From: a virus
Direction: 5' to 3' (one strand)
DNA: 64,000 nt
Virus record (IMG/VR): IMGVR_UViG_3300045988_057942
Shown here: one piece after another, positions 11,728 through 52,700 of the stretch
Numbering within the stretch: the first letter of the stretch is position 1
Layout of the letters: every line of letters begins with the position of its first letter
Program-made: the position numbers and the translations under genes
The notes under the pieces: model-generated
Databases searched by the model: none
The model's input: only the letters and a program-made list of their open reading frames with translations
What the model was told of the DNA's origin: nothing

Positions 11728-13413
11728 ATGAACAATAAACAACTATATGAAAAACTAGGTCAGAATAGTTATGATAAAGTATTTCCTATTACTTATCTTC
11801 AAAATATTCTTGACAAAGATACAAATAATGATTTAACTGTTGTTCTTTCTAGGTTTAATCATTTATGGATTCCATATCAAGGAACTAGAGTTAATACTCG
11901 TAAAGCTGTTCCTGCTATTTTTAGACGTAATAGTCTTACTATAAGTTATTATGACGCAGAACATAATATATCTGTAACTGAAAGTTATATAGGTAGTAAT
12001 ATGCAAGCTGGTGTTGAAGCTAGTTGGGTTTCTGATGATAATTGGACTAAAATTCTTAGTGAAAAATATCTTGAAGAATCTGGTGCTAAAATTCCTATTG
12101 CTGATGGTACTATTGATTGGGATATGCTTAACGAAGCTCTTAAGCAAATGATTGCTGCTGATGGTAAAGTTACTATTATTAATTATCCTGATGAAGAGGA
12201 TATTACTCTTCGATTAACTCCTGGTTGTTGTAATGTAAATCGTCTTAGTCTTAAAGATAGACATTATGAGCCTGAATATAAAAGCGGTAAAGGATATAAA
12301 ATAATTCGCAGGGTTTTACTCCCCGTGGAGGATGATGCTAGTAATGCAGAACAGCTTTTATTTGATGGTTTTCTTGATGATACTTATTGTGAACAATATG
12401 GCCAAATAATTCTTAATACTGATAAGTATGAAGTTATTAAAACAGATTTAGGTAATACTGCTGGTATTTATTATGATACTTATCATAAATTATTTGTTCT
12501 TAGAGTTAAGACTGTTCATGATGGAATTGGTTTTTATAATTATTATACTAGATGGACGATTGTAGAATCTACTGATAGAGTTCATCCTCTACGGGGGGTC
12601 AACACTCCTGTTTATGGAAATAGTGAAGATTATAATATTTATAATACTTGTCTTTCTGATGAACGTCCAAGACTTGGTATTATATATGTTAATTCAGTAG
12701 ATAATATTAAATATTATTTTAATGAAGAAAATCTAGTTCAAGTTAAGAATAATATTTATCTTAATTATAAAGCTGTTCTTACTCAAGATATGGTTAACGA
12801 AGAAAATACTCGTTATATTATTCGTTATGCTTTTGATTTAAGTGGTAAAACTATTACAATGCCTGCTGGATGTGAACTTGTATTTGAAGGTGGTATTATT
12901 GAAAATGGTACTATTGATTTAAATAAATGTAAACTTACAGGTATGGTTGGTGAAGAATCTGAATATCTTCCTAATGTAACTTGTAGTAATTGGGCTGTTG
13001 GTCAAATTGAATATCGTAATGGAAAGATTTGTTATTGGAATGGTAATGAATGGAGAGTAATGGGAGATACTTCTTCATTTGATAGTTATACTAAACAAGA
13101 AATTAATAACTTGCTTAAAAATTATTATACTAAATCTGAAACTTATAATAAAGAAGAAGTTAATAATTTGCTTAATGGATATGTTACTAATAGTACATTT
13201 AATAACTTTAAAGAAGAAATAAATCAAACTATTACTAATAGTGTTAATCTTGATAAGATTCAAAAAGCTATTAATGATGGTTGTGGAGTTAATATGACTA
13301 TGCCTAGTGCAAATAATAATAAACTTAGTCTTCCAATTTGGACAGGAACTGCTACCCAATATGCAACTATTACCCCAGTTGCTGGAATGACTTATAATAT
13401 TGTTGATGAATAA
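11728..13413 (+). CDS. Tail fibre-like protein. Carries two GC-rich repeat copies in-frame and shares a central domain with 2190-4808 and a C-terminal motif with 6957-7754.
   Basis: 561-aa ORF. Paralogous blocks as described. Peptides 'LLPVEDDA' and 'HPLRGVNTP' come from the repeat. Confidence 0.75.
   Translation: MNNKQLYEKLGQNSYDKVFPITYLQNILDKDTNNDLTVVLSRFNHLWIPYQGTRVNTRKAVPAIFRRNSLTISYYDAEHNISVTESYIGSNMQAGVEASWVSDDNWTKILSEKYLEESGAKIPIADGTIDWDMLNEALKQMIAADGKVTIINYPDEEDITLRLTPGCCNVNRLSLKDRHYEPEYKSGKGYKIIRRVLLPVEDDASNAEQLLFDGFLDDTYCEQYGQIILNTDKYEVIKTDLGNTAGIYYDTYHKLFVLRVKTVHDGIGFYNYYTRWTIVESTDRVHPLRGVNTPVYGNSEDYNIYNTCLSDERPRLGIIYVNSVDNIKYYFNEENLVQVKNNIYLNYKAVLTQDMVNEENTRYIIRYAFDLSGKTITMPAGCELVFEGGIIENGTIDLNKCKLTGMVGEESEYLPNVTCSNWAVGQIEYRNGKICYWNGNEWRVMGDTSSFDSYTKQEINNLLKNYYTKSETYNKEEVNNLLNGYVTNSTFNNFKEEINQTITNSVNLDKIQKAINDGCGVNMTMPSANNNKLSLPIWTGTATQYATITPVAGMTYNIVDE
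12318..12335 (-). repeat. GC-rich repeat copy, reverse orientation (actccccgtggaggatga), in-frame in 11728-13413 (LPVEDD).
   Basis: Core reverse complement. Confidence 0.85.
12583..12600 (+). repeat. GC-rich repeat copy (catcctctacggggggtc), in-frame in 11728-13413 (HPLRGV).
   Basis: Core match. Confidence 0.85.
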
Positions 13414-14525: not shown

Positions 14526-14630
14526 AATAATGTTAATTACCAAACAAAGATAACGGTTTAAGTGTTATAGATTATGTAGTTCAAACTACAAGTATTAATC
14601 TATTTTTTTTAACTTAAACCTTAATTTATT

Positions 14631-15948: not shown

Positions 15949-15952
15949 TATT

Positions 15953-17369: not shown

Positions 17370-17392
17370 CCATCCTCTACGGGGAGTATAGC
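17370..17392 (+). repeat. GC-rich repeat copy (ccatcctctacggggagtatagc), intergenic, flanked by imperfect 10-bp inverted repeats ttagctagg / cctagctga.
   Basis: Core match. Confidence 0.9.
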
Positions 17393-17527
17393 TTGCCGAA
17401 TTTGGCTAGTTTTAAGCCTAGCTGATTAGTTATACACGATTGAATAAAAGTCTTACTGTAAGCCTAAAAAGTGGCTCTATGGACGTACATAAATATTTAC
17501 AATATTAAAATTTAAAATAGTAAAGTT

Positions 17528-18467: not shown

Positions 18468-19928
18468 ATGAATTTTAATTTAGTAGAAATGTATAATGGC
18501 TTGTTAAGATTTAATAAGCATATACTAAATGAACTTGCAGAAGGACTTAAACATCTACCTAATTTAGATGGAGTATCTAAAGGAGATAGTTTAATTATTA
18601 ATGAACAAGGTAATCCAGCTTGGGGTTCTGCTGCATTTATTCCTACTTTTGAAAATGCTGCTTATGGTATTGAATGGACTAAAGATGATAATGATATAAT
18701 CAGAATTGGTAATGCTAAATTTCATAGAGAACTTCCTATTCAAAATAGACTTAAAGGTTGTGTCTATAATGAAAAGAAAATCAGTTATTTCCTTAATCCT
18801 ACGGGTTGGGCTAAACCTCTTGAAAATGGTTTTGTTCCTCCTCTTGATGGAAGTGATGGCGATGTTGGGGTAAGAGTTCCAGAGTTTTATATGTGCGTTA
18901 AAGATACTGGTACTAAATATCAACTTTGGATAAGTGATTTTAATATTGATGGAACATTTACTAGAGTTCATCCTTTTATTATAAGTCATACTAAAACTAT
19001 GACTAGAACTAGAGAAGATGGTAAAGAAGAAGTATTTAGTGCTTGCATTAAACATGATAATACCAGATATTTAGGAGGAAATAAAAGTTCTTCTGTTGTT
19101 GCTACTAAATTACAAGGTAGACCTAGAACTGGTATTAATTATGATAAAGCAAATGAATTTTGTGCTAATCGCGGTGATTGGATTACAATGATTGATTATC
19201 TTGAATATTGTGCTTTACAGGCTCTTTGTTATATTGAGTATGCTAATTTTGATAATCAAGCTGCATTAAATACTAATTTAACTAGTGAAGGATTTAAACA
19301 AGGAGGTCTTGGTGCTGGTGTTACAAATTTAAATTGGGATAGATGGGCAGCTTTTAATGGTAATAATCCTATTGTACAAACTTATTGGACTGCTGAACAT
19401 AATATTGGTAATGGTAGTACAAATGGTGATCATTATGAACTAGGAAATTATAATGCAGATGGAAGTAATTTAAATACTTATCCTGCTGTTTATCGTGGTA
19501 TTCTAAATTTCTTTGGTGATATATGGACATTTGTTAGAGATGTAGCTATTATTAATAAAGATACAAATTATAATAGTGTTTATCTTCTTAAAAAAGGTGT
19601 TAATCATTCTGATATTACAATAGATAATATTCAAGATAAATGTTATTTTATAGGTGACCAAGCTAATACTAATAATTTTATTACTGAATTTGATTTTAGA
19701 TTTGGTCCTTATTTTGTTCCTAATAAAGTTGGAACTAATAAAAAAGCTGACTATAATTGGAAAAGAGGTAATGATGGACAAGATACAGATAAAGCTGTTC
19801 GTGTGCTTCTGCTTGGCGGTGACGCTCTTAACGGTTCTGCGGCTGGCTCTGGTTACTTTGGTTCTCATTGGGTTCGGTCGGCTTCTGATGCTGGTGTCGG
19901 CTTCTTTACCACAGTTAAGCTTGATTAA
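18468..19928 (+). CDS. DGR target protein (variable protein). The C-terminal ~35 codons are the VR, of C-type-lectin/FGE-fold type.
   Basis: The last 105 nt match the downstream TR except at adenines. TR adenines sit in AAC/AAT/AGC codons. The VR is at the extreme C-terminus, as in Mtd-like targets. Confidence 0.85.
   Translation: MNFNLVEMYNGLLRFNKHILNELAEGLKHLPNLDGVSKGDSLIINEQGNPAWGSAAFIPTFENAAYGIEWTKDDNDIIRIGNAKFHRELPIQNRLKGCVYNEKKISYFLNPTGWAKPLENGFVPPLDGSDGDVGVRVPEFYMCVKDTGTKYQLWISDFNIDGTFTRVHPFIISHTKTMTRTREDGKEEVFSACIKHDNTRYLGGNKSSSVVATKLQGRPRTGINYDKANEFCANRGDWITMIDYLEYCALQALCYIEYANFDNQAALNTNLTSEGFKQGGLGAGVTNLNWDRWAAFNGNNPIVQTYWTAEHNIGNGSTNGDHYELGNYNADGSNLNTYPAVYRGILNFFGDIWTFVRDVAIINKDTNYNSVYLLKKGVNHSDITIDNIQDKCYFIGDQANTNNFITEFDFRFGPYFVPNKVGTNKKADYNWKRGNDGQDTDKAVRVLLLGGDALNGSAAGSGYFGSHWVRSASDAGVGFFTTVKLD
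19803..19907 (+). repeat. DGR variable repeat (VR), 105 bp.
   Basis: Aligns base-for-base with 20074-20178 at ~21 mismatches, every one at a TR 'A' (A>G, C or T). The 3' 14 nt (tgtcggcttcttt) are identical, an IMH-like end. Confidence 0.9.
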
Positions 19929-19942
19929 ATAAGTCCACGTGG

Positions 19943-20018
19943 AACTGTTGCTAGGAGTAGTTGGTTAATTAATTTGTTTTCTGTTTTTGTATTTCTCGAT
20001 ACTACTCCTGCAACAGTT
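19943..20018 (+). other. Long hairpin downstream of the VR: 18-bp stem with a 1-nt bulge (aactgttgcTaggagtagt / actactcctgcaacagtt) and a 39-nt AT-rich loop.
   Basis: Seen directly. Lies 36 nt after the VR end. BPP-1-type DGRs need a hairpin/cruciform 3' of the VR for target recognition. Confidence 0.6.
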
Positions 20019-37700: not shown

Positions 37701-40595
37701 CAAGATGATAGCACTAGACGTTTATTACTTAATGCTACTTATGCTACTGTTACAGGTAATGAACGCAATATAGAAGCTATTATGGATGATTTTGCTAATA
37801 GTGTTGATAGTGAAGGTAATACTAGAGGTAAAATTGTTAATGGTAAAGTCTATCTTAGTATTGGTCAATTAGTTGAATATATAGATGGTATTACAGGAAA
37901 TAAAATTATTAAAAATTATTTGTTTAATCAAATAAAAAACTATCTTTACGCAAGCACTAATAATCAAGGTAAATATCGTGCTACTGATGAATCAACTATT
38001 AAGAAACTTAATGCTAAACAATTTGTTCAATATGTAGATGGTATTACTAAAGAACGTCTTGAAAGACTTCAAGTTGAACATACTAATAATGTTAATCTTA
38101 AGTATATAGTAGAGAATGAAAATGTTAAAGCATTTACTAGTATTAAGCAAGGTGATTATTTAGAAGCTGTATATAATATTAAACTTAAACGTATTGATAT
38201 TTTTGCTAAAGATACAATTATTGGTTATATAGGAGTTCCAAATATTGATAAGTTTGGTAATTATGATATGGTTAACCAAGGTTGGAAATATAATATTCAT
38301 GCTGAAAATGGTCAAGTTATTTCTCCACTTAAAGACGCTTTAATTAGTATTCTTGATGGTGATAGATTTGATGAAGAATTTATTGGTCATTTATATGAAC
38401 TTGCTGTTAAAGAAGAAGTTACACAAGAAGAACTTGTTAATCTATTTAAAGAATTTGAAACTAAATATCCTGATATAGTTAGAGATTTTACTACTCCTGT
38501 TGCAAGTTTTGATTTAGCTGGACATCTTGTTAATCTTACTAAATATATATTTAATCAACCTTATGAAAACAGTCATGAAGCTAGTATTAATCGTTGGTTT
38601 AATAATCTTCTTAATAGTTATGACCAAGCTATTACAATAGTTAAAGGTGACTTTAAAGGTAAAGTTAAAGCTGTTAATGTTAAATATGGAGTTCTTAATA
38701 CTATTGATGATGCTAATGGCGAATGGAATGATGTACAAGAAACAGTAGTTAATTATAGCGAAGATGTTAATAAACTTGGTGTAGTTGTACAAGGTCAAGT
38801 ATATCTTAATGGAGAAAGCAAACCTACTATTATTGAAAATCTTACTACTAATGGTATGCCTGTTATTAGTATTCCAAGTAGTGACGGTACTTCTTTATAT
38901 GCTTTTTGTAAACAAGTTCCATTAAATAGTAATCTACTTAAAGGTGATGCTCGACGTATTACTAATTCTATTAAGAATGAAGTTAATAATCTTTGTAGAG
39001 ATTATATTAGTGGTAAAATAAGTTTTGGTGAACTTAAACAAAGTCTTGGAGATATATTTGGAAATAATAAACTTATTAACGGAGATAGAAATACTGGACT
39101 TCAAATTAGTATTAATCCTACTAATATAGGTTTTTATGTTAAAGGTGCACATTTTAATGGTAAGGATTATGCTTTTACTATTAATTCTGATGCTGGTAAT
39201 TATAAACGTAATATTATTATTAATTCTCCTTATGTTGTTAATAGTGCTTTTAAAATAGGTAAAAGTTATGGAATTAATGCTAGTACTATTGATGAATTAG
39301 ATAATGCTCTTCGTCCTGTTATTGATGAAATGTTTAACTATGCTCAATTTGCTATTAGTAAAGATTTTATTAATGATAGTACAAAAACTAATAATAAAAC
39401 TAATAAATATATTTATCGCGAAAATGGTAAAACTATTATAAATATTGATGGTGAAACTTATTCTTATAATAGTTATCAAGATTTTATTATTAGTAATGGT
39501 TTAATTAGAACTAAGTTAGCTAATACCAATACAGATGATACTGCTGGCAATTGGAAAGTTGATATACATTCCCATCTTGATATTGCTTATGAGTTAGAGG
39601 GTAGACCCCCCGTGGAGGATGGAGTTATACCTGAACAGCTATCTGAGTTTATGCTAGATGATACAGTTAATGCTATCAATATTAATTCTTTTGAATCTGC
39701 TTTAACTGCTAATAATCTTACTAGAGGTCTTAAAAAATACTTTGCTAATGACCAAACTGCTATTGATTATATCGATGCTCTTCAAAAACTTAATATATTA
39801 CCAAAAAATGTTCAAGTAGTTGATAGTCTTATAGATAACAATGGCAATCAAGTTAATGCTGTTTATCATCGTAGTACTGATACTATTGAACTTAATAGTT
39901 CTTCTATTGCTGGTCAAAGAGTTTATAGAGTTGTTAATATTATAGTTCATGAAAGTTTACATAGACAACTTTATACTAAGTATAATACCGAACAAGCAAT
40001 CGCTTTAGTTAAACCTATTTATGATAAGTTTAAGACTTGGCTTGATACTCAAGATGATTCTACTAAAGAAAGACTTAAGCCATATCTATTTGAAAGTTTT
40101 GATACTGCCGAAGCTTTAGAAGAATTCCTTGTTGAAAGTATTACTAGTAATGCTCTTATGACTGCTCTTAATGAAATAAAAGATGACAATAGAAAAACTA
40201 GTAAACGTAAGACTCTGTTTAGTAGACTTCTTGAAGTTATTGCTGATATGCTTGGTATCAAGATTAATGAAAATAGTTTATTAGCTTCTGCTAGAGATGC
40301 TTATAAAGCTATTAAAAAGATGTCTATTGAAACTAATCAAGAAGCTACTCAAGGTACTTTTAAATTTGAAGAACCTGTTATCAATACTGAACAAACTGAA
40401 AATCCTAACGAAGATATAAGTCAAGAATATAATTATAATAATGATAATCTTAATGATGGACTTGATATGTTTAGTAGTATTGATGATGATATAGTGCTGA
40501 ATATGGCTGAATTGACTAGCCGTTTGCCAATAGCACAACAGTCCGAATTTGCCACTTTGCTTGACACAGGACGCATCAGTTTTAGCTGTATGTAG
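34722..40595 (+). CDS. Giant virion (cargo-type) protein, 1957 aa, with an HExxH zincin-like motif ('IIVHESLHRQLY', ~aa 1745) and an acidic Pro/Glu-rich low-complexity region.
   Basis: Long ORF. HESLH motif. Repeat-derived peptides 'SPSSTGSIAERSEAVLS' and 'RPPVEDGV'. Confidence 0.85.
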   Translation: MDVLKFLQGGNQTPNPKYNPKTKKGAIQPPTLVDYNPGTSISDRGRGRLFGRIAEQSYNLNQYNIDKYAPYDVYVNPVDDHEKLDKERAVNQSNWEQGLRMIGQIGNEITVGTAIGFADLADAFYNMVSNSPNDYQSEISSELESLKESINERLAIYRENPNAAFDIGDFAWWASNAPSIASSLTLMVPSTGLAKGVSLLGKSIKFNKLANKMANAINMTQKSRAITGRIAEATAIGVPSRYLENYQEARQTYNDIEDYSKTQLANMNDKQREEFYNNNPKYRDMSDEEVAKDIAKNSADVTFAEDWANVLFDVWQVYSLKNLWKNALSGNTTSSRLRNLNTAFNSNIDDAAAITNALSNKTTKQAITSTLKDIGDDILHGVRAEWTEGVEEAINYIASQDGMYNGKKVFDKDIPQQTIKDYLQDPMLWEQAFWGALGGITFSSVMNKAGEFINKRLDKDWTSAEKQRENEILGRTATFQAYQERLNSIANGKNPFITITDENGQQVNPDIITGTEEELRNIAEKEYMDNIIINSMNAGNLGLLESSINSKEFNDSITNKLGLQQQDSIELINRFKTEINNIKNEYNTTLNKVNRLGGGFEVGRIIATQMVHARNRQENYNNLLNWANNVLNQDITNNHIEDVDITSAKNGIYQHILDSIQRDIKTIQDNAAINDSVKQERIAQLNERLDAINKLYTPIDIENKNDIQSAIQLQKQYNEVFKDLAEVVNAEINVEVNKNQLNLSDDNIKSRITYLNNFFDNSRKKIVNKAMDDLRNAYKQYGKEYVNSVIKDANNGNKPNIDKVIRDAYAALDLSSKGNEHLKNTIEQLAEIAKIENDVNNTPKEEEVAPVNPDVNEVNETDVDDTNSSPSSTGSIAERSEAVLSEPTNTEQLQSQTEQPISQEPISTPKPEVNNTLPDDDFERGQIGTDLVYESIADLEDSLGHESTSSDLLNARQSFIDKLSQAGFEQTEAADIVNNIIDGLTGGSLYSSVQDDSTRRLLLNATYATVTGNERNIEAIMDDFANSVDSEGNTRGKIVNGKVYLSIGQLVEYIDGITGNKIIKNYLFNQIKNYLYASTNNQGKYRATDESTIKKLNAKQFVQYVDGITKERLERLQVEHTNNVNLKYIVENENVKAFTSIKQGDYLEAVYNIKLKRIDIFAKDTIIGYIGVPNIDKFGNYDMVNQGWKYNIHAENGQVISPLKDALISILDGDRFDEEFIGHLYELAVKEEVTQEELVNLFKEFETKYPDIVRDFTTPVASFDLAGHLVNLTKYIFNQPYENSHEASINRWFNNLLNSYDQAITIVKGDFKGKVKAVNVKYGVLNTIDDANGEWNDVQETVVNYSEDVNKLGVVVQGQVYLNGESKPTIIENLTTNGMPVISIPSSDGTSLYAFCKQVPLNSNLLKGDARRITNSIKNEVNNLCRDYISGKISFGELKQSLGDIFGNNKLINGDRNTGLQISINPTNIGFYVKGAHFNGKDYAFTINSDAGNYKRNIIINSPYVVNSAFKIGKSYGINASTIDELDNALRPVIDEMFNYAQFAISKDFINDSTKTNNKTNKYIYRENGKTIINIDGETYSYNSYQDFIISNGLIRTKLANTNTDDTAGNWKVDIHSHLDIAYELEGRPPVEDGVIPEQLSEFMLDDTVNAININSFESALTANNLTRGLKKYFANDQTAIDYIDALQKLNILPKNVQVVDSLIDNNGNQVNAVYHRSTDTIELNSSSIAGQRVYRVVNIIVHESLHRQLYTKYNTEQAIALVKPIYDKFKTWLDTQDDSTKERLKPYLFESFDTAEALEEFLVESITSNALMTALNEIKDDNRKTSKRKTLFSRLLEVIADMLGIKINENSLLASARDAYKAIKKMSIETNQEATQGTFKFEEPVINTEQTENPNEDISQEYNYNNDNLNDGLDMFSSIDDDIVLNMAELTSRLPIAQQSEFATLLDTGRISFSCM
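37329..37371 (+). repeat. Extended GC-rich repeat copy (ccatcctccacggggagtat + agcgg agcga agcga agcgg ttc), in-frame in 34722-40595.
   Basis: Core plus (AGCGR)4 pentamer tail. Confidence 0.9.
39604..39622 (-). repeat. GC-rich repeat copy, reverse (gaccccccgtggaggatgg), in-frame (RPPVEDG).
   Basis: Core reverse complement. Confidence 0.9.
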
Positions 40596-40725: not shown

Positions 40726-43700
40726 ATGAGTTGTGGAAATATTAAACTTGTAGGATATAATAATCTTAATAATGTTATTATTAAAGAACATGGTTCTAAT
40801 AATGCAGATTATTATAGTCTTATAGCTATGGTTGAAGACCCAATCTTTAAGAAGATTGTAGCTGATAAAGGTATTAATGTTAAAACTTCTGGAAGACAAG
40901 CTTATAATGCTCTTCTTGAAGCTAGAGCTATTAAACTCCGTAATATGGATGATATAGCTTCTGTTGCTGAAAAAGAAGAACGTGGTTTGTTTAGTACAAT
41001 TAAAGCTAGAGATACAGCTATTACTTATATGGCTGATATTATGAATAAACTTAGTTTTAATTTTCTATATAATGGTGCTCCATTAAATTTTAATGAAATT
41101 AAAAAACGTACTAATGAAACTGTTATTAATGCTGGACTTAAACGTGCTAAGAAATTAGCTGGAAGTGATGAAACTAGAAATAATGAACTTAATAGTTTTA
41201 TTAATAATCCAAATCCTGCTATTAAAATTAACGGTCTTGGTGCATTTCTTCGTAAATACGGTAATGCTCAAGATTTTAATTATGGGGCATTACTGCGTTC
41301 TCTAACTAATACTGAATTTAATGAAGCTCTTTTTAATAATAAGAATGTTGCTAAACTTATTAAAAGAGATGAATTATATCAAACTACTGATTATGAAGAA
41401 TTAGGCGGATATCTTGATGAAACTTTTACTGAAGGTGATGAAAATAGTATAGATGATGGTATTGATTTAATGACTCAACTTTGGAATTTAAGTATTGGTG
41501 AAGTTAAAGATTTTAATAAACACGTAGAAGAAATTATTAAATATCATCTTGCAAGTTTACCTAAACTTACTGCTGCTTCTCAACTTGATAATGGAAGTTA
41601 TCCTTTTGATACTAATAATGAATTAGGAGTTGTTACTTTTTCTGATGCTAATTATTTATCTAAAATATTATATGCTAGTGCTGATACTAGTAATGTAGAT
41701 AATTTTATAGCTAGTCTTAAACGTATATCTGAAACTATTCCAAATTGTGAATGTTTAATTCAATTACATGATTTACTTAGCAAAAATAAAGTATTTGCTA
41801 ATAAGTATATGATGGTATTTAATAAACCTATTATATCTAAAATTGAAACTTATATTCAAACTGATTCTAATGGTAATAGTTATGTTCGTGCTCGTGTAAC
41901 TAATCCTAATACTGATTCTCGTACTATTTTACAGAATACTTTTTATAATAATGTTAAAAATAATATTATTACTAATCGTGTTCCTAGTGCTCGTGAAAAG
42001 TTTCGTATATATGATAGATATAAAAATACTCCTCATGCTAATCTTTATTTATATGATGCTTTTAAAGAAATATTTCCAGATATTAATCAAGCTAGTTTTA
42101 ATTTAGCTATTGCTAAAATTGGACGTATTGCTATGGCTAATAATCTTATTAACTTTGCTAATGTTATTAATCGTACAGTTGAAAATTATAATAAATATGT
42201 AGAAGCACTTAAAAAGGATAAAAGAACTAAAATGCCTGATAGTTTTATTAATAGAGGTGATACTTCTATTATATATCAAATGGCTGATGTTTTTAAAGAT
42301 ATTATTTATATTCCTGTTGAACTTAATTCTCGTAATCCTGAAGGTAATTTAAGTTCTGATGTTATTAATAGAAGTTTTATTACTAATATTGCTAAAATTA
42401 TTAATGATGATAAATCTACTGTTGAAGAGCAAAATGCTATGGTTGAAGCTTATGCTAAACAAAAGTTTGCTAGTCATCAATATGATTATAGTAATTTACT
42501 TCTTGAACATAGAGATAGTAATGGTAATATAATTAATTATGGATTATTTAGAAGAGTTGGAAATGGAACTCCTAAACTTACCGAATATGCTCGTAGTATG
42601 TTTAAAACTTCTCTTCTTAATGGTATTAGCGAATTAGATAATAACAATAATGACTTATATCGTAGTATGAGTGATGGTGATTATTTAATTACTGCTATGG
42701 GATTATTTATGACTGATATTAATAATTCTGAAACTCCTACTGCTAATTATTTACTTCCCATACCTAGTGATGCTCCTAAAAACTTTACTATTACTGCTCC
42801 TAGATATAGTCTTGCTGGATTACGTAGTCAACTAGAAGATGGAACTAAAATTATAAATAGAGAACATCCATTATTTAAACAGTATTATAATATAGTTATT
42901 CAAGAACTTACTAATATGGCTCAAGCTGTTAATGTAATGTTTAAAACTAATGCTAATGGTAATCCTATTTTAACTAATGGAGATTTTGAATTTAGTGATA
43001 CTTATAATAATAAACCTGAACATTTTTATAATCAATACCATAAAGATGGAAAAGATAATGTATTTACTACTAAAGATGGACATAAAGTTTTAGCTGGTAG
43101 AGTATTTAGTTTTAAACGTTTAGCTAGTAAAATTACTCCTAATAGTAATGGAGCATTTAATGAACTAATTGGGTATGGTAAGACTATTGACATCCTCTAC
43201 GGGGGGTCTACACGTGGACTTAGCTATGTTAATAATCAAGTAGTTCTTAATGCAGAACAACGTATTGCTCTTGAAGATGCTGTTGCTGATTGGTTAAATG
43301 AATATATAACTAATGGTTATAAAGAACTTAAAAATAAATATGGTACATTTATTGATGATAGGATTAATAATGAATCTTTAGCTGAGTTTCTTGTTAATGA
43401 CTATCTTGTTAGAGATAGTATGTACGATATGTATGGCGGCGACCAAAGTTTTTATAAAAATGGTCAAGCTATTCTAAAACGTATTAAAGAAGTACAAGCT
43501 AGTGGTAATCCTTTTGGTAATACAGACTTTACTAAAAATGATTTAGATATAGCTACTAATTTATATGATGTAACAATTAATGGTAATGCTATTACTGTCC
43601 CTTATACAGTTAATGGAGTTGTTAAACGTAAAAAAGTAGTTCTACAAGATAAATTTAGAGGTGTTACTATTTATAATACTTTTAAATCTTCTGATAAAGT

Positions 43701-46700
43701 TGTTATTGATAGACTTGATGACCAACTTAAAAAAGCTGGACTTGATAAAAAAGACAGAGAACGAATATTAGAACCATTTAAAGGAGGAGTTAATGCTAAT
43801 GATGCTCAATCTTATATTACTCTTGAAGAATGGATTCGTCGTATTACTGCTGCTGGTGAATTAGATAAATATGCTGGACTTATTCAAAGTCTTACAGATG
43901 ACACTCCTATTGATAAAATTGATTGGAATAAATTTGCTAATAAAGTTCAAATTCAAAAGAATTTCTATTATGATTTATATTATGATACTACTGTTGGTAT
44001 TGAAGTTCCTAGACAAGTAAAGAATGCTGAGTTTGTTCTTATTCCTAAACTTATTAAAGGAACAGAACTTGAAAAAGTTTATAATATAATGACTAATAGA
44101 GGTATTCATCAGCTTAATACTGTTGAAACTGTTAAAGTTGCACAACATAACAGAATGACACTTTGGAATAACGATGGGGTTCTAACTGATAAAGCTCTTA
44201 AAGAATTTGATGATAATGTATTTGATAATTCTGAATTGTTTAGTTATAATTATCTTTATCGTCAACAAGAAGTTCCTCAGCATATGGTTGATGCTAGTAA
44301 TAAAGCTGCTATTCAGATTATGAAAAAAATGCTTGATAATCTTCCTAATAAACCTGAACTTAATGACCTTAAAAATAAAGTATTTAATAATTATGTAGCT
44401 AATATTAGAAATAGTTTTGAAAAAACTTGTGCTGAACTTGGTATTGGATTAGATGATAATGGTCATATTGATTTAAATTCTAATGGTACTATTAAAAATC
44501 TTAATCGTTTTGTATTTTTTGATAGATTTAAAGAAAATGCTCAACAACAAGGAGTTGAGAAAGCTTTTCTTGAATTTTTTGATTTAGATAGTGCTGGATT
44601 TAATAATCTTCCTTTATTCTTATCTAATATTAATAGTAAACTAGAAAGTATTGCTAATAGTTATTTTAATACTAATATTACTAGACAACTTATTAGTGGT
44701 TGGCACGCTGCTCAGTTATCTGATTTTGGATTTAAAGTTGATAAACAAACTCAAACAGATAGTAAACTTCAATATAAGAAAATTGGAGAAGTTGATGGCA
44801 CTCCTGTTTATTATACTGAAATTAAACTTCCTAGATGGAGTAGTAAACTTAAAGGATTAAATATTGAACAAGTTCCTGATAGCTTACGTACTATGATTGG
44901 TTATCGTATTCCTACTGAAGGTAAGCAATCTATATGTATTATGTATGTTAAAGAGTTTCTTCCTGATGCTTATGGTAGTACTGTTGTTGTTCCTGATGAA
45001 TGGGTTACTCAAACTGGTTCTGACTTTGACGTTGATAGTGTTTATGGTATGTCTAAAACATTTAATCTTGTTAAAGGTGTTCCAACTGAAATTACTCATG
45101 CTAGATATACTAAAGATGAAGTAGGATATATTAATTATGTTAAAGATAATGTAGATAAAGCTAGTCGTAAGATTCTTGGTAAGACTTATAATAAACAAGG
45201 TAATATTAGAGCTTCTTTAAAAAATAGTGAAGATGCTATTAATGCTACTCTTGAAGGTTATAATGGCAATCTTAAAGTTGTTGAAAAAATTGCTAATGAT
45301 GGTGGACTTAAGTCTTACGAATCATACTTGAAACTCCCCGTGGAGGATACAAGTAGTCAAGCTGCTAGAACTAATGCTATTATTCAATCATTTATTGATA
45401 TACTTAATAATCCTGCTGCATTTGAAGAAAATACTACTACTTCTAATTTTGAAAATGTCAAAGAAGCTAATGAAACTTATGCAGAAATAGTTGGCGCTAA
45501 TAAAACAACTGTTGCTCCTAGTGATTTCTTTACTCAACTTGATTGGTTTGATGCTGCTACTTCTGGTATTAAACTTAAAGGTATCAGTGTTAATAGAGAT
45601 ACTTTTATGAGTATTGGAAATGTTACTAAAGCTAATCATAGCGAAGGTATTAAAGTTATGTACACTACTGATGTGATTAGTGAGCAAGAAGCTGTTAATA
45701 GATATGGTAAAGAAAATGTTGAAACTATTGGTAATAAACATATTCGTATTACTCATAAGAATTTTGGTTGGTCTGGAGATGATAAGAATGTTGATGGTTA
45801 TTTGATTAATCCTTATAGTTCTCAGACTACTGCTCATATTCTTGATGTTATGAAAGAGGGAGCTATACATAATGAAAATACTTATACATTTAATGCTTTC
45901 AAAACTATTGTTGACTTTGGAAGTAATTATGATACTGCTATTGGATTTATGTGGCAACCTGCTATTGATATATTAGTTCGTAAATGGAAAGAAACTAATA
46001 GTGTTCTTGCAGAAGGTACTAAAAATCCGCTTACTGAAGCTATTAGAGAAGTTGCTCATAATCTTGGTTTTGGTGAAAAAGTTAATTTTGCTGGACGTAA
46101 AAAGCTAATTGATATTATTAATGAAAGTTATGGTGAAACTTTCAAGAAATTATTCAATTTAAGCGTTTCTGAGGCATTTTCATCACCCAACCTTATATTT
46201 TCATCAGACGCATATAAATCTCGTCTTAGAGGGGAAATGAATGGGGTTCAGCAGGCTTTATTTGACCTTTATGTTCTAGCACAATTCAATCGGTTAAACT
46301 CAATCGGACAGGATATAAGTAATAATCTTAATATTCTTAGTGCTGATAAATATGGTGCTAAACAAAGTTTTTATGCTAGTGATAAAGTATTTAGAGATGC
46401 TAGAACTGTTATTGAAAATAGTAATATTTATGCTCCATCCTCTACGGGGGGTCAAACCTTGTTGTTAGAGAGTGTATTTCCTGATATTAGTGGTGGTATA
46501 GATGCGTTTATTAAATCAGATATATCTAAAAGTAGTTATCCTAGTTTAGCTGCATTTTTACAAATGAGTACTGCTCTTAGTGTTAAAGCTACTCAACAAG
46601 TATTTGAAACTGCTAATCCTGTATTTATTGATTATGTATATAGAATAGCGGAATGGACTAAAGGTGGAATAATGACTGAAAAGTTATATAATGACTATAA

Positions 46701-49700
46701 AGATTATCTTATTAATAAACTAGAAGTAGGTAATAATGGTAGTTCTTATCTTAATTTACCTGTTACTGTTGTTAATGGAGATTTTGTTCATCCTAAATAT
46801 ATTAAAGAATATGGTACTGGACAATCTAGAGCTTTAGAAGTTGGTAGAGTTAGTGGTACATTAGTTAATATTAAAACTGATGATGTTGTAGTTAAAAATA
46901 TATTTGAACCTACACAAACTGAAATTGATGTATTTGCTAGACTTACACCTGCTCAAAAAGTTGATTGGATTAAACGTAATTTTAGTCAAGACGGTAGTAT
47001 ATTTGCACATATTGAAATAGTTGCTAATGATGAAAGAAATAATCGTCGTAATGTAAATATTCAATATATTAATTATATACAAGGTGATATTACTAATGAT
47101 GAAGCCCATAGATTGTTTGATAGAGCTTGGAATCATCCTAATCCTCTTATTAAACTTGCAGCTCTTGATTTAGTTAAATATGCTTTTATTGTTGAAGGTC
47201 ATAAATTTAGAACTAGAAATATTAGTAGACTTATAAGTAATACTCCCCTTAGAGGATTGAGCGATAATGGAATAGCTATTGGAGATATAGCTATGAAAGG
47301 CATTAATAACTATGGTTTTATTGATAAAGATAATGTTGAAGATATAATTGGTTTTATTCGTAAAAATTATAATAGTTTTAATTGTCCTAGTTATACATTT
47401 AAAAGACTTACTAATAATAAAATTAATTATAGTCTAAAAAGAAGTGGTATTATTACTTTTAATGGTCAAGAAAATCTTGATAATGTAGGAATAATAAGAA
47501 ATGGAGATGCTGTTAATGTTATTAGAATTAATAAAAATTTATATATTAAAGGAACTTATGATGGAACTTTAGCTTATTATCCTATTGATAGACTTGAATC
47601 ATTTGAAACTTATAATAGTATTGAGCCTAGTATTATAGCTAATAATAATATTCATAAACCGTTAGCTGTTCTTCTTTATGAAGGTCTTACTCAACAAGAA
47701 AAACGAGATAAATTTATTGATGGTATTAAAGACAATATTAATGAAGCTATAAATAAAGGTTATAAAGAAGTTCCTGAACTATATGGTAAATATATATCTG
47801 ATGAGTATTTCCAACCTTTTATGAATACTCCTTTTGAGAATAATACTATATATACTATTAATGATAAATTTTATCTTAACATTAATGGAACTACTGCTAT
47901 TAATTTAAGCGATGATTTACAGCAATATAAAGCTAAATATCCTAATATTGAAGATAGTAAACTTGGATTATTTATTGAAATTAATGAAAATGAAATAGAT
48001 AGAGTTACAAGTAATACTGATAGATATAGTAGTGTTGATGACCAAACTCCTATTGGTAGATTTGCTAAAAATGCAAGTTTAATTATTTCAAGAGCTGTTC
48101 GTCATGGTCAACCTGCTGCTCAAAATGTATTAAACGCTCTTAATAATGCTGAAATTAATTATCTTGATAGTAGTAGTCTTTCTGATAATTCTGAATTTTC
48201 ATTATCAGTTATAGCTAATTATATAGATGTTGAAGCTAATAATATTCTTAATGATATTAATCGTTTTATTAAAATTGATGGTATCGATAAACCTATTAAC
48301 GATAAAGATGTTATTGGTAAAGTTCTTAAAGATGAACAACTTCAAAATCGTTTCTTAGATGTTATTCTTAGTGCTAATACATTTAAGAATAAATACAAAC
48401 TTATTAGCGAAATTGATATTGATAGTACAAATCTTGATGATAAAACTAAAGAGAATATTAGAAAGATTCAGAAACTAGTTAATCAAGTTGATTCTAATAC
48501 TACTGTACATTCTGCTAGAAAAGATTGGTTTGAAAGATGGATTCAATTACGCACTACTAATCCTAATTATATAAGTGGTCTTATGAAAGAATTTGATGCT
48601 TATGGTGATACTGGATTTATGGATTATTGGATACAAGATATTCGTGCTAATCGTAACTTTGTATTGCAGAATATACTTAAAGATGTAATGGGTACTGTTG
48701 AAGAAGGTCGTCTTAACGGTATTAAAGAAGCTAATGACTTTAGAAATTATCTTAAAGAACTTAAATCTAGAGCTACTAAAGATGGTAAATCTGTTAGTCT
48801 TGATAGTATAATTGATGATGATGGTAGATTAATTCAACCTAATAATCCTATTTGGGAAGAAAAGATAAAGAAATATAGAGATGCTGCTATTGAAGCTGAA
48901 CAAAAATTTGGTATAAATAGTGTTGAACATCTTATTGCTTTATCTAATAAAGCTAAATTTATTGATATGACTACTATTCATCAGCTTAAACCAATCACTG
49001 TTCAAGATGAAGATGGCAATGATGTTACTATTGAATATTCTACTTATATTATAAATCTTGAAAGAAGTTTATTAGGTCTTAAAAAAGGAGATGATGGTAT
49101 TCCTAAAGAATTTGCTGAATATAAAAGACTTAATGGTAGAATACGAGATATTCTAAGCCAAGCTACTGATAATGTTACTACACAAAGTCAAGATGAAGAA
49201 CTTGGACGTATCTATGCTCAAATGGATAGCCTTACTAGTCTTTATGATGAAGATGGTAATAAAAAGATTGGTCATGATTTAAATGTAGCTGAAAGACTTC
49301 GTGCTTATCAAACTAATATTCGTAAAGTAAAAGAAATGTTCTATGATAAGCAAGCTAAAGAAGGATTTGATTCTAAACTTAAAGAACAACTTTCTATTAT
49401 TAGTAAATATGAAAGTCAACGTGATGCTAATGGTAATCTTCTTATTAGTATGGAAGAACTTATGAAAGTTCCTGAATATCGTGAAGCTAAAGAATGGATT
49501 CGTAAGAATACTAGATATATTCTTGATATTAAAGATATAGAAGATTTAAATTGGGCATTTGAAGAACTTAAAGACGCTAATAAAGGTAATAGTGTTCTTA
49601 ATCTTGCTATTAGAGAATTTCAAGCTAAAGATGAATTTAACGTAGTTGATGGACGTAAAATACCGGAAGAACGTGCCGCTCTCATAAAAGCTGAAACAGT

Positions 49701-52700
49701 TAGAAAATATAAATATACTAAAGGTAATGGTATACCTTATGTTGGTATTATTCGTTCTGCTGAAGATGAATTAAGAATTTATCGTGCTGATTTCTATAAT
49801 TATCTTACAGGTAATAAATCTAAGAGCGAAGAAGAAATTAATGTAGGAGAAGCTATTAATAAAATACTTGAAAAATATTTTGATAATGCTACTAGAACTC
49901 TTAATACTGCTGATATTAGTCAAGAAGATTTAGAACAACTCAAGACTGGTTTTGAAGTATTTAATGAAATTACTAGAGGAGAAAAGAGTGTTGATAAAGC
50001 TAAAGCAAAACGTGTTGCTGAATTTATTGAAAGTGAATGTGATGTTACTTATAATTGGAAGCAATATGAACTTGATAAAAATAGAGCTTTTGCTAAAGGT
50101 AAAAAGTATTATGATAAATGGCTAGAAGTATTTAGTGAACAAGTTGAAGAAAATGGAACTATTGCAGAAAGACCTAATCGAACTATTTATGGTATTATTA
50201 AACCTAAAGATTTAGATAAATGGACTGATATTGATAAAACTGCTGCAATTAATATTCTTCAAAAAAGAACTAGAGAAACTACTACTCAATATTATTATAT
50301 AAAAGAAAAAGAAGTTCTTGATAAATATGGTATTGATAGTCCAGAATATAAACAATGGTATAGAGATAATCATTATTTTGACCCATATACTCGTACTATT
50401 AAACCTATTCGTATTTGGACTACTATGCAAATGATTAAAGATGATGGTTCAGCTGTTGTTGGTAATTATGAACCACGTATTAATCAAATGCATATTACTC
50501 CTAAAGAAGAACTTATTAATCCAGAATATAGTAGTTTTGTTAATAAGTATAAAGTAGGAACAGGATATGATAATCCTAATTATACTAATCTTAATGAGTA
50601 TCAACTTGAACTTATGAATAAAGTAAATGAACTTATGAAAAAGTATTGTTTTACTAATAGTAATAAGCGATATGTTGATATGGGTTATCTTCCAGCTTTG
50701 CCTAAATCTAAAGATATGACTGTTAAAGATTATTTTGAACAAGCTCTTAGTTTTCTTGGTTGGACAGCCAATGTTCCTAATAATACTAGTTGGAGAAATA
50801 ATGAAGATTTAACTTTTGATAAAGATTATGATATTCCTAATCCTAGATTAGTTCAGTTAGTTAATAAAGATACTCAACAGTTGCCTACTATACCTAAATT
50901 TAAAGAGCCTAATGAAAGTGATGAAGAATTTAGTAAACGTAAAGCTGCTGCAATTAAAGCTAGAGATGAAATTATTGAAAAGAATAATAAAATTCATAAT
51001 GATATTCTTAATCGTAATTGGGAAGAAGTATTTAATAGTTTCTTAATTGAAAGTAATAGATATAATGCTATTAAAACAGTTAAAAATCTTCTTTATACTG
51101 CTGACCAAATTATTACTAGTAATACTGCTTACGATATAAATTATAAAGGTAGTATAAGTGAAAATAGAGAAGCTAGTGCTGGTGGTGAAATTGAATATAA
51201 ACAAGAAAAACAAACTAGAACTAGTGAACATCTTAGAAGTTTTATTCGTCGTCTTGTATTTGAACAATATAAAGATAATAAAATTCCTAATCTAGTTAAA
51301 CTTGGTTCTCTTGCTCAAAACATTGCTGGTAGTAAATATATGATGATGAACATTACTGGTGGTATTGCTAACGTTCTTACTGGTTCTAGTAATATATTTA
51401 TGGAACGAGCTGCTGGTGAATATATTAATCTTAAAGATTGGGAAGCTGGTAAATCTGAATGGATTAAAGGAACTGTTAGTTATATGGCTAATATGTATAG
51501 TGAAAATAGTAGTACTCTTCAAGATGCGATTATTAAACTTAGTCATGTAGTTGATTTTGATAGAGTAACTGAAGTTAGTACTGCTGAAGGTCTTAAAGAA
51601 AATATTCGTAGAGTTCGTGGATTACTATTTAGTCCTCAATCTGTTGGTGAACATTATATGCAAAATGTTATGCTATTTGCTATGCTTAAATCTCATAGAC
51701 TTGTTGATAATGGTAGAGGTGGTTATGATATAATGAGTAAAGAAATGTATCATCGTAAAGCTGAACAAGATGCTCTTATGTCTGTAATAAATACTCCCCG
51801 TGGAGGAGAGAACCAAGCTCTACTTGAACAATTCAATAAGTTCATGGATGAAGCTAAAGCTGATAATAAAAAACGAGCTAAATATAATCTATTTAAAGCT
51901 AATCCTATATTTGATTTTGTTAAGACTTATCTTAATGAAGAACAACAAAGAGAATATATAGCTAAACGTAAAGAACTTATTAAGAATATTGATAAAGAGT
52001 TTGCTAAACTTCCAGATATTTATAATCAGTTTGAACTTAAAGATGGAATTGCTCAAATAAAATCTGATAGTAAACTTACTCTTAAAGAATATGCTAAATT
52101 TATTGATAAAGTTCGTGAAGTAAATAAGAAAGTTCATGGTGTTTATGATAAACTTGGTTCTGCTAATATAGAACAACATTGGTGGGGTGGTACGGTTATG
52201 CAATATCATAAACATCTTTATCCTGGTTTTAAGAAACGTTATCGTTGGAACGGTTATTATAATGAAACTCTAGGTACTATTGAAAAAGGTAGTTATACTA
52301 GTCTTTATGATTATTTGACTATTCCATTTAAAGAAACTAACGTAGGAGAAATTAATAATGTAAGTGATGTTCTTAAAGCATTCCAAACTTATGGTAAGAA
52401 TTTACTTTCATTTGCTGTTAATTTCAAACTTAATTATGAACTTCTTCCTGAACATGAAAAAGCAAATATTAGACGTAATTTAGGTGATTTACTTTATGTA
52501 GGTGCTGCTATTATTGGAGCAATTGCTATAACTGGTATTGGAGGTGATGACGATGAAAGTATTATGTATAATCTTATGCTTTATCATGCTGACCGTCTTG
52601 CTTCTGAAGCTGCATCATTTACTCCATTTGGAGCTTATGCTGAAGGTAAAAAGCTATGGTCTAGTCCTGTTGCTATTGGACAAACTATTAATGACTTACT

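Follow-up and report, generated by a model that had tools for sequence, protein, structure and literature searches.

A dispersed, near-invariant motif of crAss-like phages, most likely a selected recognition signal

An asymmetric 18-mer, CCATCCTCYACGGGGRGT, recurs in and between the genes of the prototypical crAssphage. Judged from sequence comparisons, it probably represents, in its Carjivirus version, an ancient cis-acting nucleotide signal of the Intestiviridae crAss-like phages, most likely a recognition signal under selection. The window, meaning the whole 64,000-nucleotide stretch analysed (IMG/VR record IMGVR_UViG_3300045988_057942), is ~95% (about 91–96%) identical to Carjivirus communis BK010471 and represents the prototypical crAssphage. 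It contains 20 copies of the 18-mer at ≤3 mismatches, compared to an expectation of 0 from 100 shuffles, and a further copy with 4 mismatches at 24097 raises the total to 21. The reference genome (97 kb) contains 33 copies, 21 of them intragenic. The motif is short, near-invariant and hugely over-represented, with copies in both orientations inside and outside genes. The sites in the window are as follows, with the peptide encoded by intragenic copies.

2139..2156, plus strand: solitary intergenic sense copy, 13 nt past the stop of the gp68 homologue and 34 nt ahead of the ATG of the gp67 homologue
8361..8378, plus strand: sense copy in the BACON-domain tail protein gene (gp64 homologue), ASSTGS
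12318..12335, minus strand: antisense copy in tail protein gp63, LLPVEDD, C/G variant
12582..12599, plus strand: sense copy in gp63, VHPLRGV; in L017 and L115, whose gp63 alleles are divergent, it is degenerate or missing
17370..17430, plus strand: solitary sense copy between genes (17370-17387), extended on its 3' side by GC-rich sequence
23884..23933, plus strand: sense copy in the gene for tail tubular protein gp50, PSSTGG, with the GC-rich extension GCGGAGGACGAAAGTCCGGAGCG after it; site also in cr110_1
24097..24114, minus strand: antisense copy in gp50, TPRGGY; the cr110_1 ortholog is in another frame, SPVEDK
30870..30887, plus strand: sense copy in gp47, PSSTGG
31314..31331, minus strand: antisense copy in gp47, TPRRGR; T/A variant in this strain, whereas other strains have either G or A
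37329..37370, plus strand: sense copy in gp45, PSSTGS, followed by the extension AGCGGAGCGAAGCGAAGCGG, which contains GCGAAGC; site also in cr110_1
39605..39622, minus strand: antisense copy in gp45, RPPVEDG
43190..43207, plus strand: sense copy in the giant RNA polymerase gene gp44, DILYGGS
45333..45350, minus strand: antisense copy in gp44, KLPVEDT; site also in cr110_1 (LTLPVEDR)
46435..46452, plus strand: sense copy in gp44, PSSTGG
47242..47259, minus strand: degenerate antisense copy in gp44, CAATCCTCTAAGGGGAGT, TPLRGL
51793..51810, minus strand: antisense copy in gp44, TPRGGE; corresponds to a 7-residue insertion relative to cr110_1
54082..54250, both strands: origin-like module with two outward-facing copies, 54106-54123 (minus) and 54201-54218 (plus)
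58487..58530, both strands: tight inverted pair, its copies 8 nt apart, located between the homologues of gp33 and gp31/32
63445..63462, plus strand: copy in antisense orientation within the ATP-dependent DNA ligase gene (62478-63704, minus strand), LPPVEDG

The Carjivirus core, TCCTCYACGGGGRGT, belongs to a motif family of general form T-(C/T)6-ACGGGG-R, which was found throughout the sampled Intestiviridae loci, including the cultured phage crAss002. In each clade examined, ACGGGG was nearly always preceded by a pyrimidine tract of 6–7 nt, with clade-specific versions (TCCTCT, TTCTCT, TCTTCT and TCCTTT). The motif holds 35 bits of information compared to the 12.6 bits needed to specify its sites, roughly three times the amount required to locate a site in the phage genome, and the excess fits a need for uniqueness against the host genome. 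As a side observation, the motif is GC-rich in a genome of 29% GC and accounts for roughly half of the window's GC-rich islands.

When 185,579 species genomes were scanned for the exact 18-mer, multi-copy matches were apparently crAssphage contigs mis-binned into metagenome-assembled genomes or assembly contamination (judged from the lengths and titles of the contigs), and the remaining matches were roughly two dozen single chance hits. The motif therefore does not appear to be a host-derived or CRISPR-related repeat, there being no bacterial multi-copy occurrence apart from these crAssphage-looking contigs. No published description of it was found in the literature that could be searched.

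Sites occur at a density of roughly one per 3–4 kb and are spaced more evenly than random placement would give, with a gap coefficient of variation of 0.43 in crAssphage (P = 2e-4) and 0.47 in cr110_1 (P = 4.5e-4), compared to 0.81–0.82 for random placement; even spacing was not seen in crAss002 (15 copies; coefficient of variation 0.85). Solitary copies show a non-significant excess of the sense orientation (29 versus 18, P = 0.14, ~38% antisense), and a sense share of ~60% is expected inside genes anyway, because one antisense frame is closed by the stop. Among solitary intergenic copies the bias is 10:2 (P = 0.04), and crAss002 has 11 sense and 4 antisense copies.

Reading frames of intragenic copies

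The initial annotation had reported that intragenic copies avoid the only frame containing a stop, and had suggested either that insertions in that frame were purged or that the element is tuned for coding-compatible insertion. Its count of stops was correct: the motif contains a single stop trinucleotide over both strands, and none of the antisense intragenic copies in the window uses the SP(*/W)RM frame. The frames it assigned also hold, apart from slips in coordinates (a copy placed at 43201 lies at 43190, and 8362, 12583, 39604 and 63444 are each one base off) and one antisense copy that it missed. All seven of its antisense copies were confirmed, those at 12318, 39605, 45333 and 63445 reading (L/P)PVED and those at 24097, 31314 and 51793 reading TPR(G/R)G; the overlooked eighth is at 47242 (CTTAGAGG, TPLRGL). 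Sense copies lie in the SSTG(G/S) frame in five cases, while 12582 starts at codon position 3 and 43190 at codon position 2.

The statistical support is weak: restriction of the eight antisense copies in the window to two of the three frames has P = 0.039, with P = 0.017 for the ten antisense copies genome-wide and P = 0.088 for the TAG-free antisense copies alone (n = 6). The absence of TAG-frame insertions is supported, but trivially so: a TAG-bearing copy cannot lie in frame inside an open gene, which makes the avoidance a tautology. It is an ordinary side effect of genes staying open, with no special significance and no special adaptation behind it. Tuning for coding-compatible insertion finds no footing in the stop content either, because shuffles of the same bases average 1.06 stops and 71% of them have at most one, so that one stop in six frames is what composition predicts. 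The frame bias itself (SSTGG in sense, PVED in antisense) is best read as the encoded peptide being tolerated in permissive loops.

It had further been claimed that reverse copies use a G variant that removes the TAG. GTGGAGG is indeed present in six of the seven antisense copies listed at the time, but its enrichment among antisense copies is not significant, with P = 0.08 in the window (6/8 versus 4/13, Fisher) and P = 0.45 across the whole reference genome (6/10 versus 9/23, Fisher). The TAG is already out of frame in both used frames, and the change from GTA to GTG is synonymous in the PVED frame. Also against the claim, the T/C state flips between strains at one and the same site (31314, 24097, 54106 and 37329), and the G variant is absent from antisense copies of the sister genus, where nine of nine in Delmidovirus cr110_1 keep GTAGAGG.

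Conservation across strains and clades

Conservation acts on the nucleotide sequence and not on the protein, reflecting selection or drive, because third codon positions are constrained and the same site is read in different frames between clades. Across strains, third-codon-position differences amounted to 1.7% in the core versus 8.8% in the 60-nt flanks (Fisher 5e-12). In phages that are only ~68% identical, the orthologous ligase site still has an intact motif between flanks that have diverged. Orthologous sites were found across genera and subfamilies (PolB identity 39–99%) in the genes for PolB, the SNF2 ATPase, ligase and RNA polymerase and in gp45 and gp50, and antisense intragenic copies (SNF2, ligase and RNA polymerase) are conserved as deeply as sense copies. 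The primase site lies 8–10 residues upstream of the conserved IGVINI in every clade and encodes LYGG or PLRG depending on the clade; likewise, the second gp50 site encodes TPRGGY here versus SPVEDK in cr110_1.

All 21 sites of the window were present in essentially all covering crAssphage strain loci, with the sole exception of 12582 in two divergent gp63 alleles, and the PolB-region sites were fixed across 23 strain loci. Where genera do not share a site, its position often coincides with an indel of 5–11 residues, which leaves room for an insertional origin of individual copies. Recent insertion nevertheless fits poorly with orthologous positions across genera and subfamilies, purifying selection at the nucleotide level and even spacing.

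Paired copies and candidate readers

Some intergenic copies form tight pairs, and in the two complete genomes all seven such pairs have the same polarity, with their pyrimidine ends facing each other. In the 54082..54250 module, the copies are separated by a 77-nt AT-rich spacer and each has a GC-rich extension on its outer side with small hairpins (GCGAAGC; GAGTGC-GTA-GCACTC); the module lies ~530–670 nt upstream of a gene for a RepL homologue (53023-53577, minus strand). Two of the four tight intergenic pairs of the reference genome lie upstream of repL genes and flank AT-rich spacers, and the region adjoining the other repL is the published origin prediction (PMC10983915). AGCGG and GAAGCGG are skewed towards the sense strand, which GC skew can explain.

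In the explanation that we favour, selection on the nucleotide sequence itself would keep about one site per 3–4 kb in either orientation, inside genes and between them, and a protein whose gene includes a site would have to accommodate the peptide that results. Copies would then persist only in frames that are free of stops and tolerated (SSTGG, ILYGG and PLRGV in sense; PVED and TPRGG in antisense), and the frame pattern first reported would be a by-product of this. A phage-specific trans-acting factor would read the signal, most probably a sequence-specific protein that binds DNA or tracks along it in replication or genome maintenance, since both repL genes have upstream of them an AT-rich spacer between outward-facing copies and the sites hold about three times the information needed to locate them in the phage genome. 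Several observations count against this explanation, among them the lack of even spacing in crAss002 and the indels at non-shared sites. A purely orientation-blind duplex-binding protein leaves the 10:2 bias of solitary intergenic copies unexplained, and 13 positions are near-invariant over ~30 sites, which is unusual for protein-binding sites and also fits base-pairing with RNA or ongoing homogenisation of copies. A bolder version, which we regard as possible but doubtful, is an undescribed genome-wide code in the family to which the most abundant phage of the human gut belongs: a 15-nt, ~35-bit tag confined to phages, placed every 3–4 kb, long kept despite its reshaping of proteins and read by a dedicated phage machine with which lineage-specific versions co-evolve. 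If so, the sites could act as a Chi-like self/non-self switch for a helicase-nuclease, as replisome or primosome loading sites or as nucleation points for silencing in the plasmid state.

Four other explanations were weighed. That the motif is a small mobile element (of the type of MITEs, Rickettsia palindromic elements or mitochondrial GC clusters), which inserts into genes and persists only where the frame remains open, was the view of the initial annotation. Its GC-richness and share of the GC-rich islands would agree with this, as would the many non-shared sites at 5–11-residue indels, the degenerate or absent 12582 site in divergent gp63 alleles, a genus-specific flanking consensus of the kind that copy homogenisation would give, and a lineage-specific inserted segment in gp50 bracketed by two inverted copies. 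We nonetheless consider it quite unlikely: sites are orthologous across subfamilies, the core is under strong purifying selection while its flanks diverge, spacing in two genera is significantly even and neither random nor clustered, and sites are essentially fixed among dozens of strain loci, without the presence/absence polymorphism of a mobile repeat. Moreover, solitary copies are non-palindromic, their stop content is ordinary for their composition, no terminal inverted repeats or target-site duplications were noticed on informal inspection of the copy listings and no transposase was noticed among annotated genes. About as improbable is an RNA-level element, in which the pyrimidines and G run of the sense transcript form a hairpin capped by UAC(G), and inverted pairs form long stems, for mRNA processing, stabilisation or termination. 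The pyrimidine tract varies only from C to T against an invariant G run, so that G-C or G-U pairing is preserved, though only on the motif strand; solitary intergenic copies are mostly sense and just past stop codons, the sense excess recurs in crAss002, and the 58487..58530 pair folds into a 17-bp hairpin (RNA, -32.7 kcal/mol; z = -7.2). Self-folding of a solitary copy, however, is no better than that of shuffled sequence (RNA, -4.2 kcal/mol, z ~0; DNA, -1.3), and among copies there were no double compensatory changes, only C/T changes opposite G. A T that lies opposite a G is conserved in 90 of 102 copies, which points to reading of the sequence and not to pairing, and the equally conserved antisense intragenic copies would make a mismatched hairpin in mRNA. 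No U-run follows the motif, and Rfam gave zero matches at the gathering score.

Another reading, somewhat less improbable though still unlikely, is a Chi-like self tag, recognised in single-stranded form by a helicase-nuclease that tracks along DNA (the phage SF1 helicase together with a PD-(D/E)XK nuclease, or a host enzyme) and would switch from degradation to repair, so that phage DNA is marked as self and untagged host DNA is degraded. The even spacing of 3–4 kb is near the density of Chi in Escherichia coli (roughly one per 4.5 kb), the motif is strand-asymmetric with clade-specific variants and is not a repeat in the bacterial genomes scanned, and the copies of a pair are so oriented that the AT-rich spacer between them would be shielded on both sides. 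Copies occur in both orientations with an excess co-oriented with genes; GC skew and the published origin prediction suggest that replication and transcription run in the same direction, in which case the excess would follow replication too. The phage also encodes RecT, a nuclease, a helicase and a Gam-like inhibitor. On the other side, known Chi sites are 5–8 nt long compared to 15 nt and 35 bits here, the overall orientation excess is non-significant and the closed antisense frame would by itself give ~60% sense inside genes, a fused helicase-nuclease is not among the annotations, and GC skew can account for the AGCGG and GAAGCGG bias. Least probable of all is that the motif serves a phage-specific polymerase (the giant virion RNA polymerase or a DnaG-type primase) as a promoter or primer-start site, in the manner of T7-type promoters that double as origin elements. 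T7 promoters are comparable to the motif in information content (35 bits) and density (one per ~3 kb), clade-specific variants would fit co-evolution with a polymerase, intergenic copies are mostly sense, pairs flank AT-rich spacers near repL and the most deeply conserved site is in the primase gene. Efficient transcription of single-stranded DNA by a crAss-like virion RNA polymerase (bioRxiv 10.1101/2020.03.07.982082) counts in the same direction. Yet ~40% of copies run antisense, those in sense within genes lie mid-gene and not upstream of gene starts, no shared motif was found ahead of the early transcripts of phage phi14:2, whose middle and late genes are served by the host polymerase, and a CTA/TTA primase start is disrupted in half of the crAssphage copies by a central C in place of T.

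Significance and relation to known systems

crAss-like phages are the dominant viruses of the human gut, and their replication, plasmid persistence and gene control are largely unknown, so the motif offers a concrete handle. It predicts a trans-acting partner that binding assays could retrieve and marks candidate origins adjoining the repL genes; as carriers can be cultured (crAss002 and probably the related Rudgehvirus), mutation and testing are feasible. Because the same site is read in different frames between lineages, it also shows, in a clean natural case, how a nucleic-acid signal constrains the evolution of proteins, and the invariant 15-mer is a lineage-specific marker that may serve detection.

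Several known systems share part of this pattern. Rickettsia palindromic elements are likewise translated within many unrelated proteins in permissive loops, but they are 100–150 bp long, palindromic, mobile and patchily present, whereas the crAssphage motif is 15–18 nt, non-palindromic, evenly spaced, positionally conserved and selected at the nucleotide level. Baculovirus hrs are also repeated around a viral genome, where they serve as origins and enhancers; they are intergenic clusters of 30-bp imperfect palindromes, in contrast to single asymmetric 15-mers inside genes. Promoters of the T7 group hold ~35 bits, repeat roughly every 2–3 kb and have lineage-specific variants, with some copies inside coding sequence and at origins, but all of them point with the genes, whereas ~40% of crAssphage copies point against them and sense copies lie mid-gene. 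The operators of the P1 C1 repressor are asymmetric sites of ~17 bp scattered over a phage-plasmid, some in inverted-repeat pairs and one controlling the repL lytic replicon; unlike the crAssphage sites, which are two thirds intracoding and near-invariant, they are fewer, more degenerate and located at promoters. Chi (RecBCD/AddAB) resembles the motif as a dispersed, asymmetric form of self-marking, genic and intergenic, at one site per few kb in both orientations. It differs in its length of 5–8 nt and strong skew with replication direction, compared to 15 nt, a weak skew and a putative cognate enzyme in crAssphage. The uptake sequences of Haemophilus (USS) and Neisseria (DUS) are alike in being short, near-invariant, asymmetric and over-represented, mostly genic, present in both orientations and biased in frame towards tolerated peptides, with intergenic copies often in inverted pairs that form hairpins. 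Those sequences belong to transformable bacteria with an uptake machinery, whereas the crAssphage motif belongs to a phage without one, is longer (15–18 nt) and is held at orthologous positions across subfamilies.

Motif copies and reading frames in the window

Megablast identified the window as prototypical crAssphage (Carjivirus communis BK010471 and its strains), with aligned blocks about 91–96% identical to the reference; it is the reverse complement of reference positions ~17.6–81 kb. Its GC content is 26–33%, with a GC-skew flip at ~52–53 kb, where two convergent gene blocks meet. The motif, CCATCCTCTACGGGGAGT, had 20 matches in the window at ≤3 mismatches compared to 0 in 100 shuffles, and a 21st copy lies at 24097 (4 mismatches). 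Six copies are intergenic, seven lie within genes in the sense orientation and eight are antisense to a gene.

Peptides read across intragenic motif copies in the window
12318, 39605, 45333, 63445: antisense, (L/P)PVED
24097, 31314, 47242, 51793: antisense, TPxxG
Five of seven sense copies: (P/A)SSTG(G/S)
One of seven sense copies: HPLRGV
One of seven sense copies: ILYGG

None of the eight antisense copies uses the SP(*/W)RM frame, and six of them carry GTGGAGG. The initial annotation had thus described frames and orientations accurately, bar small coordinate slips (43201 should read 43190) and one overlooked copy, 47242. The avoidance of the TAG frame that it reported is seen in all antisense copies, but is a tautology for the T-variant copies because no intact gene can contain an in-frame TAG; for the six TAG-free copies alone, the chance of avoidance is P = (2/3)^6 = 0.088. 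It had also proposed that reverse copies use a G variant by which a TAG is removed. Enrichment of this variant (C in the forward orientation) among antisense copies was not significant, either in the window (Fisher P = 0.08) or in the whole reference genome (6/10 antisense compared to 9/23 others, Fisher P = 0.45). TAG is already out of frame in both frames used, GTA to GTG is synonymous in the PVED frame and the T/C state at a given site varies by strain (31314, 24097, 54106, 37329 and 58487/58513). In the sister-genus phage cr110_1 (Delmidovirus, MT774386), nearly all copies have the T form and GTAGAGG is retained in 9/9 antisense copies, 8 of them in the PVED frame. As for the suggestion of an element tuned for coding-compatible insertion, the motif contains one stop trinucleotide over six frames compared to a mean of 1.06 in same-base shuffles and is therefore not tuned for coding. 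The observation was accurate but its significance overstated, and neither the G-variant nor the coding-tuned reading is supported.

Among sense-frame peptides SSTGG is the most frequent, alongside ILYGG and PLRGV; among antisense-frame peptides it is PVED, alongside TPRGG, while SP*RM or SPWRM was never observed. As peptides, the favoured strings are small, polar and loop-like, the motif sites fall in variable, indel-rich stretches (flank identity 0.93) and sites not common to both genera coincide with indels of 5–11 residues. Probable tolerance of these peptides in loops, together with trivial exclusion of the stop frame, explains the frame distribution.

Conservation of the motif as a nucleotide signal

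The motif is an ancient nucleotide signal, specific to phages and under selection, that is superimposed on coding sequence. It is conserved far above its flanks: among strains, third-codon-position differences occurred in 1.7% of comparisons in the 15-nt core compared to 8.8% in the 60-nt flanks (Fisher P = 5e-12; haplotypes are non-independent, yet the effect is five-fold). At the ligase site, the motif is intact in phages only ~68% identical, in which the adjacent codons are unalignable. Proteins of crAssphage and cr110_1 are 31–60% identical, and roughly half the intragenic sites occupy orthologous positions in the two (PolB, SNF2 ATPase, RNA polymerase, gp45, gp50 with two sites, ligase, gp78 and primase).

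We surveyed 44 loci centred on PolB (39–99% identity) and found a version of the motif in every clade examined; the clades comprise phages related to cr3_1, to cr8_1 and cr271_1, and to crAss002, cr107_1 and Rudgehvirus. Nearly all ACGGGG occurrences in these AT-rich genomes lie directly 3' of a pyrimidine tract of 6–7 nt, the sequence of which is clade-specific (TCCTCT; TTCTCT or CCCTCT; TCTTCT; TCCTTT). The cultured phage crAss002 (Intestiviridae, Churivirinae) has 15 copies. In all clades, the DnaG-type primase carries a site 8–10 residues upstream of the conserved IGVINI; it reads (I/L/F)(L/F)YG(G/E) in crAssphage and the L152 and L149 clades, and (N/F)PLRG in Delmidovirus-like and crAss002-like clades. 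Likewise, the second gp50 site reads TPRGGY in crAssphage compared to SPVEDK in cr110_1. The DNA motif is thus kept while the frame across it changes, which rules out selection for a conserved peptide and means that inheritance of one old insertion alone is insufficient. Around positions 11216–11300 of two Delmidovirus-like contigs, L160 and L166, the PolB reading frame stops 27 codons past its motif copy; with a PolB match extending over ~3.4 kb rather than 2.3 kb, this suggests an intron or intein-like insertion near the motif.

A scan for the exact 18-mer in 185,579 bacterial and archaeal species, one genome each, returned multi-copy matches only on contigs that, judging from sizes and titles, look like crAssphage (mis-binned in metagenome-assembled genomes (MAGs) or contaminating a Chitinophaga assembly), plus roughly two dozen single chance occurrences; it is thus no repeat of the host, and no genomic-repeat or CRISPR origin was found in these species. 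By the same criteria, apparent near-complete crAssphage genomes (89–98 kb contigs with many motif copies; L169–L248) are present within GTDB species representatives, filed as MAGs named 'uncultured Clostridia', 'Clostridiales', 'Mycoplasma sp.' or 'bacterium', and the many small motif-bearing contigs of the Chitinophaga silvisoli K20C18050901 assembly look like contamination. The first 50 kb of crAss001 (Steigviridae), the part searched, contained no ACGGGG. This phage (MH675552, 1–100000; L168 and L257) has its own dispersed 9-mer, CTTCTGGAG, with 27 exact copies in both orientations compared to 1.9 expected under a third-order Markov model; their spacing is not significantly even (gap coefficient of variation 0.70, P = 0.19). 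Crassvirales may thus generally carry over-represented motifs of a pyrimidine-then-G type that differ by lineage.

Spacing, inverted pairs and the repL region

The reference genome contains 33 motif copies, and the information content of the motif is 35 bits compared to the 12.6 bits required for ~31 sites in 97 kb. Copies are significantly evenly spaced in crAssphage (gap coefficient of variation 0.43 versus 0.82 for random placement, P = 2e-4; largest gap 7.5 kb versus 13.4 kb) and in cr110_1 (0.47, P = 4.5e-4); even spacing is absent in crAss002. Solitary copies showed no significant orientation bias (29 sense, 18 antisense), and those between genes were 10:2 sense (P = 0.04). Alternation of orientation along the genome was not robust (P = 0.019 in crAssphage but 0.19 in cr110_1), and enrichment of recombination breakpoints at the motif was marginal (identity-jump percentile 0.61 versus 0.50 expected).

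In the two complete genomes, 7/7 tight inverted pairs between genes have the same polarity, 5'-ACTCCCCGTAGAGGA...TCCTCTACGGGGAGT-3'. The window pair 58487/58513 folds into a 17-bp hairpin (–32.7 kcal/mol, z = –7.2). Another, 54106/54201, brackets a 77-nt AT-rich spacer upstream of the RepL-homologue gene (53023–53577), and its outer sides bear GC-rich mini-hairpin extensions containing GCGAAGC. A matching pair in the reference genome, 95742/95861, lies upstream of the second repL, in the region of which a replication origin has been predicted (PMC10983915). Within the window, megablast matched both flanks of 53036–53775 to the reference at ~95% identity but not this stretch itself, marking it as a divergent repL allele; Pfam returned no family for the 184-residue ORF. 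Intragenic inverted pairs, 140–440 nt apart, mostly run motif then reverse complement, opposite in polarity to the intergenic pairs, and a second GC-rich module, comprising AGCGR pentamers and small hairpins (GCGAAGC, GCGTAGC and GGAC-GAAA-GTCC), follows about five copies on their 3' side.

Intragenic inverted pairs and GC-rich modules
23884–24114, window: intragenic inverted pair in gp50
30478–30656, 43105–43277, 20304–20455, cr110_1: intragenic inverted pairs
23902–23933, 37347–37370, 54082–54105, 54219–54250, window: GC-rich module
95879–95905, reference: GC-rich module

In gp50, the bracketed segment is Cys-rich, and the homologues in crAss002 and crAss001 either have a shorter version of it or lack it. 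Inversion of the segments between intragenic copies was rejected, as the inverted reading is interrupted by stops in gp63 (8) and gp47 (2); the gp50 segment alone stays open, and it then encodes an implausible peptide. The reference genome has 30 occurrences of AGCGG versus 17.6 expected (23 in the sense orientation) and 6 of GAAGCGG (6/6 sense), but a Chi-like role for these words of the 3' extensions was not retained, since genome GC skew may account for their sense bias.

The ~1 kb dUTPase intron with an HNH endonuclease annotated in BK010471 (reference 24467–25490) is absent from the window strain, its flanks being cleanly joined at 56952–56961. A diversity-generating retroelement at 19803–21625 is missing from the reference (20032–21609 has no counterpart); its variable and template repeats differ at 22 positions, all template adenines.

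Diversity-generating retroelement in the window
19803–19907: variable repeat, 3' end of the tail-collar fibre gene (18468–19928)
20073–20177: template repeat
20328–21278: reverse transcriptase ORF (Pfam RVT_1, E = 3e-18)

Candidate roles and comparison with known systems

We consider it reasonably likely that selection maintains the motif as a cis-acting recognition signal and that the frame pattern is a by-product. Such a signal would be read by a trans-acting factor. A copy inside a gene must be translated, leaving its encoded peptide in the protein. The excess of information fits a signal needing uniqueness against a multi-megabase host genome, and the pairs around AT-rich spacers adjoining repL point to a possible role in replication or genome maintenance.

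Four rival explanations were considered, in which the motif would be a mobile mini-element, a self tag of the Chi type, an element acting at the RNA level, or a start site for a polymerase or primase. The motif failed the tests for a MITE or Rickettsia-type insertion and those for a T7-type promoter. It also failed the tests for a structured RNA: a single motif folds no better than shuffled sequence, as RNA or DNA, and no known RNA family matched at gathering score; the sole weaker hits, to microRNA precursors, were spurious and fell on the long inverted pair. Conservation of T opposite G in 90/102 copies argues for sequence reading over pairing, and the restriction of pyrimidine-tract changes to C/T is compatible with a single-strand-reading mechanism.

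Searches of limited extent with motif sequence strings found no relevant paper, and the motif is unmentioned in a preprint on crAssphage as a phage-plasmid, the paper on crAss002 and a review of Crassvirales; the element is real and apparently undescribed. In behaviour it most resembles DNA uptake sequences and Chi, which like the motif are over-represented, asymmetric and found both inside and between genes; DNA uptake sequences also show inverted pairs and a bias in frame. A further analogue is provided by the dispersed, asymmetric C1 operators of phage-plasmid P1.
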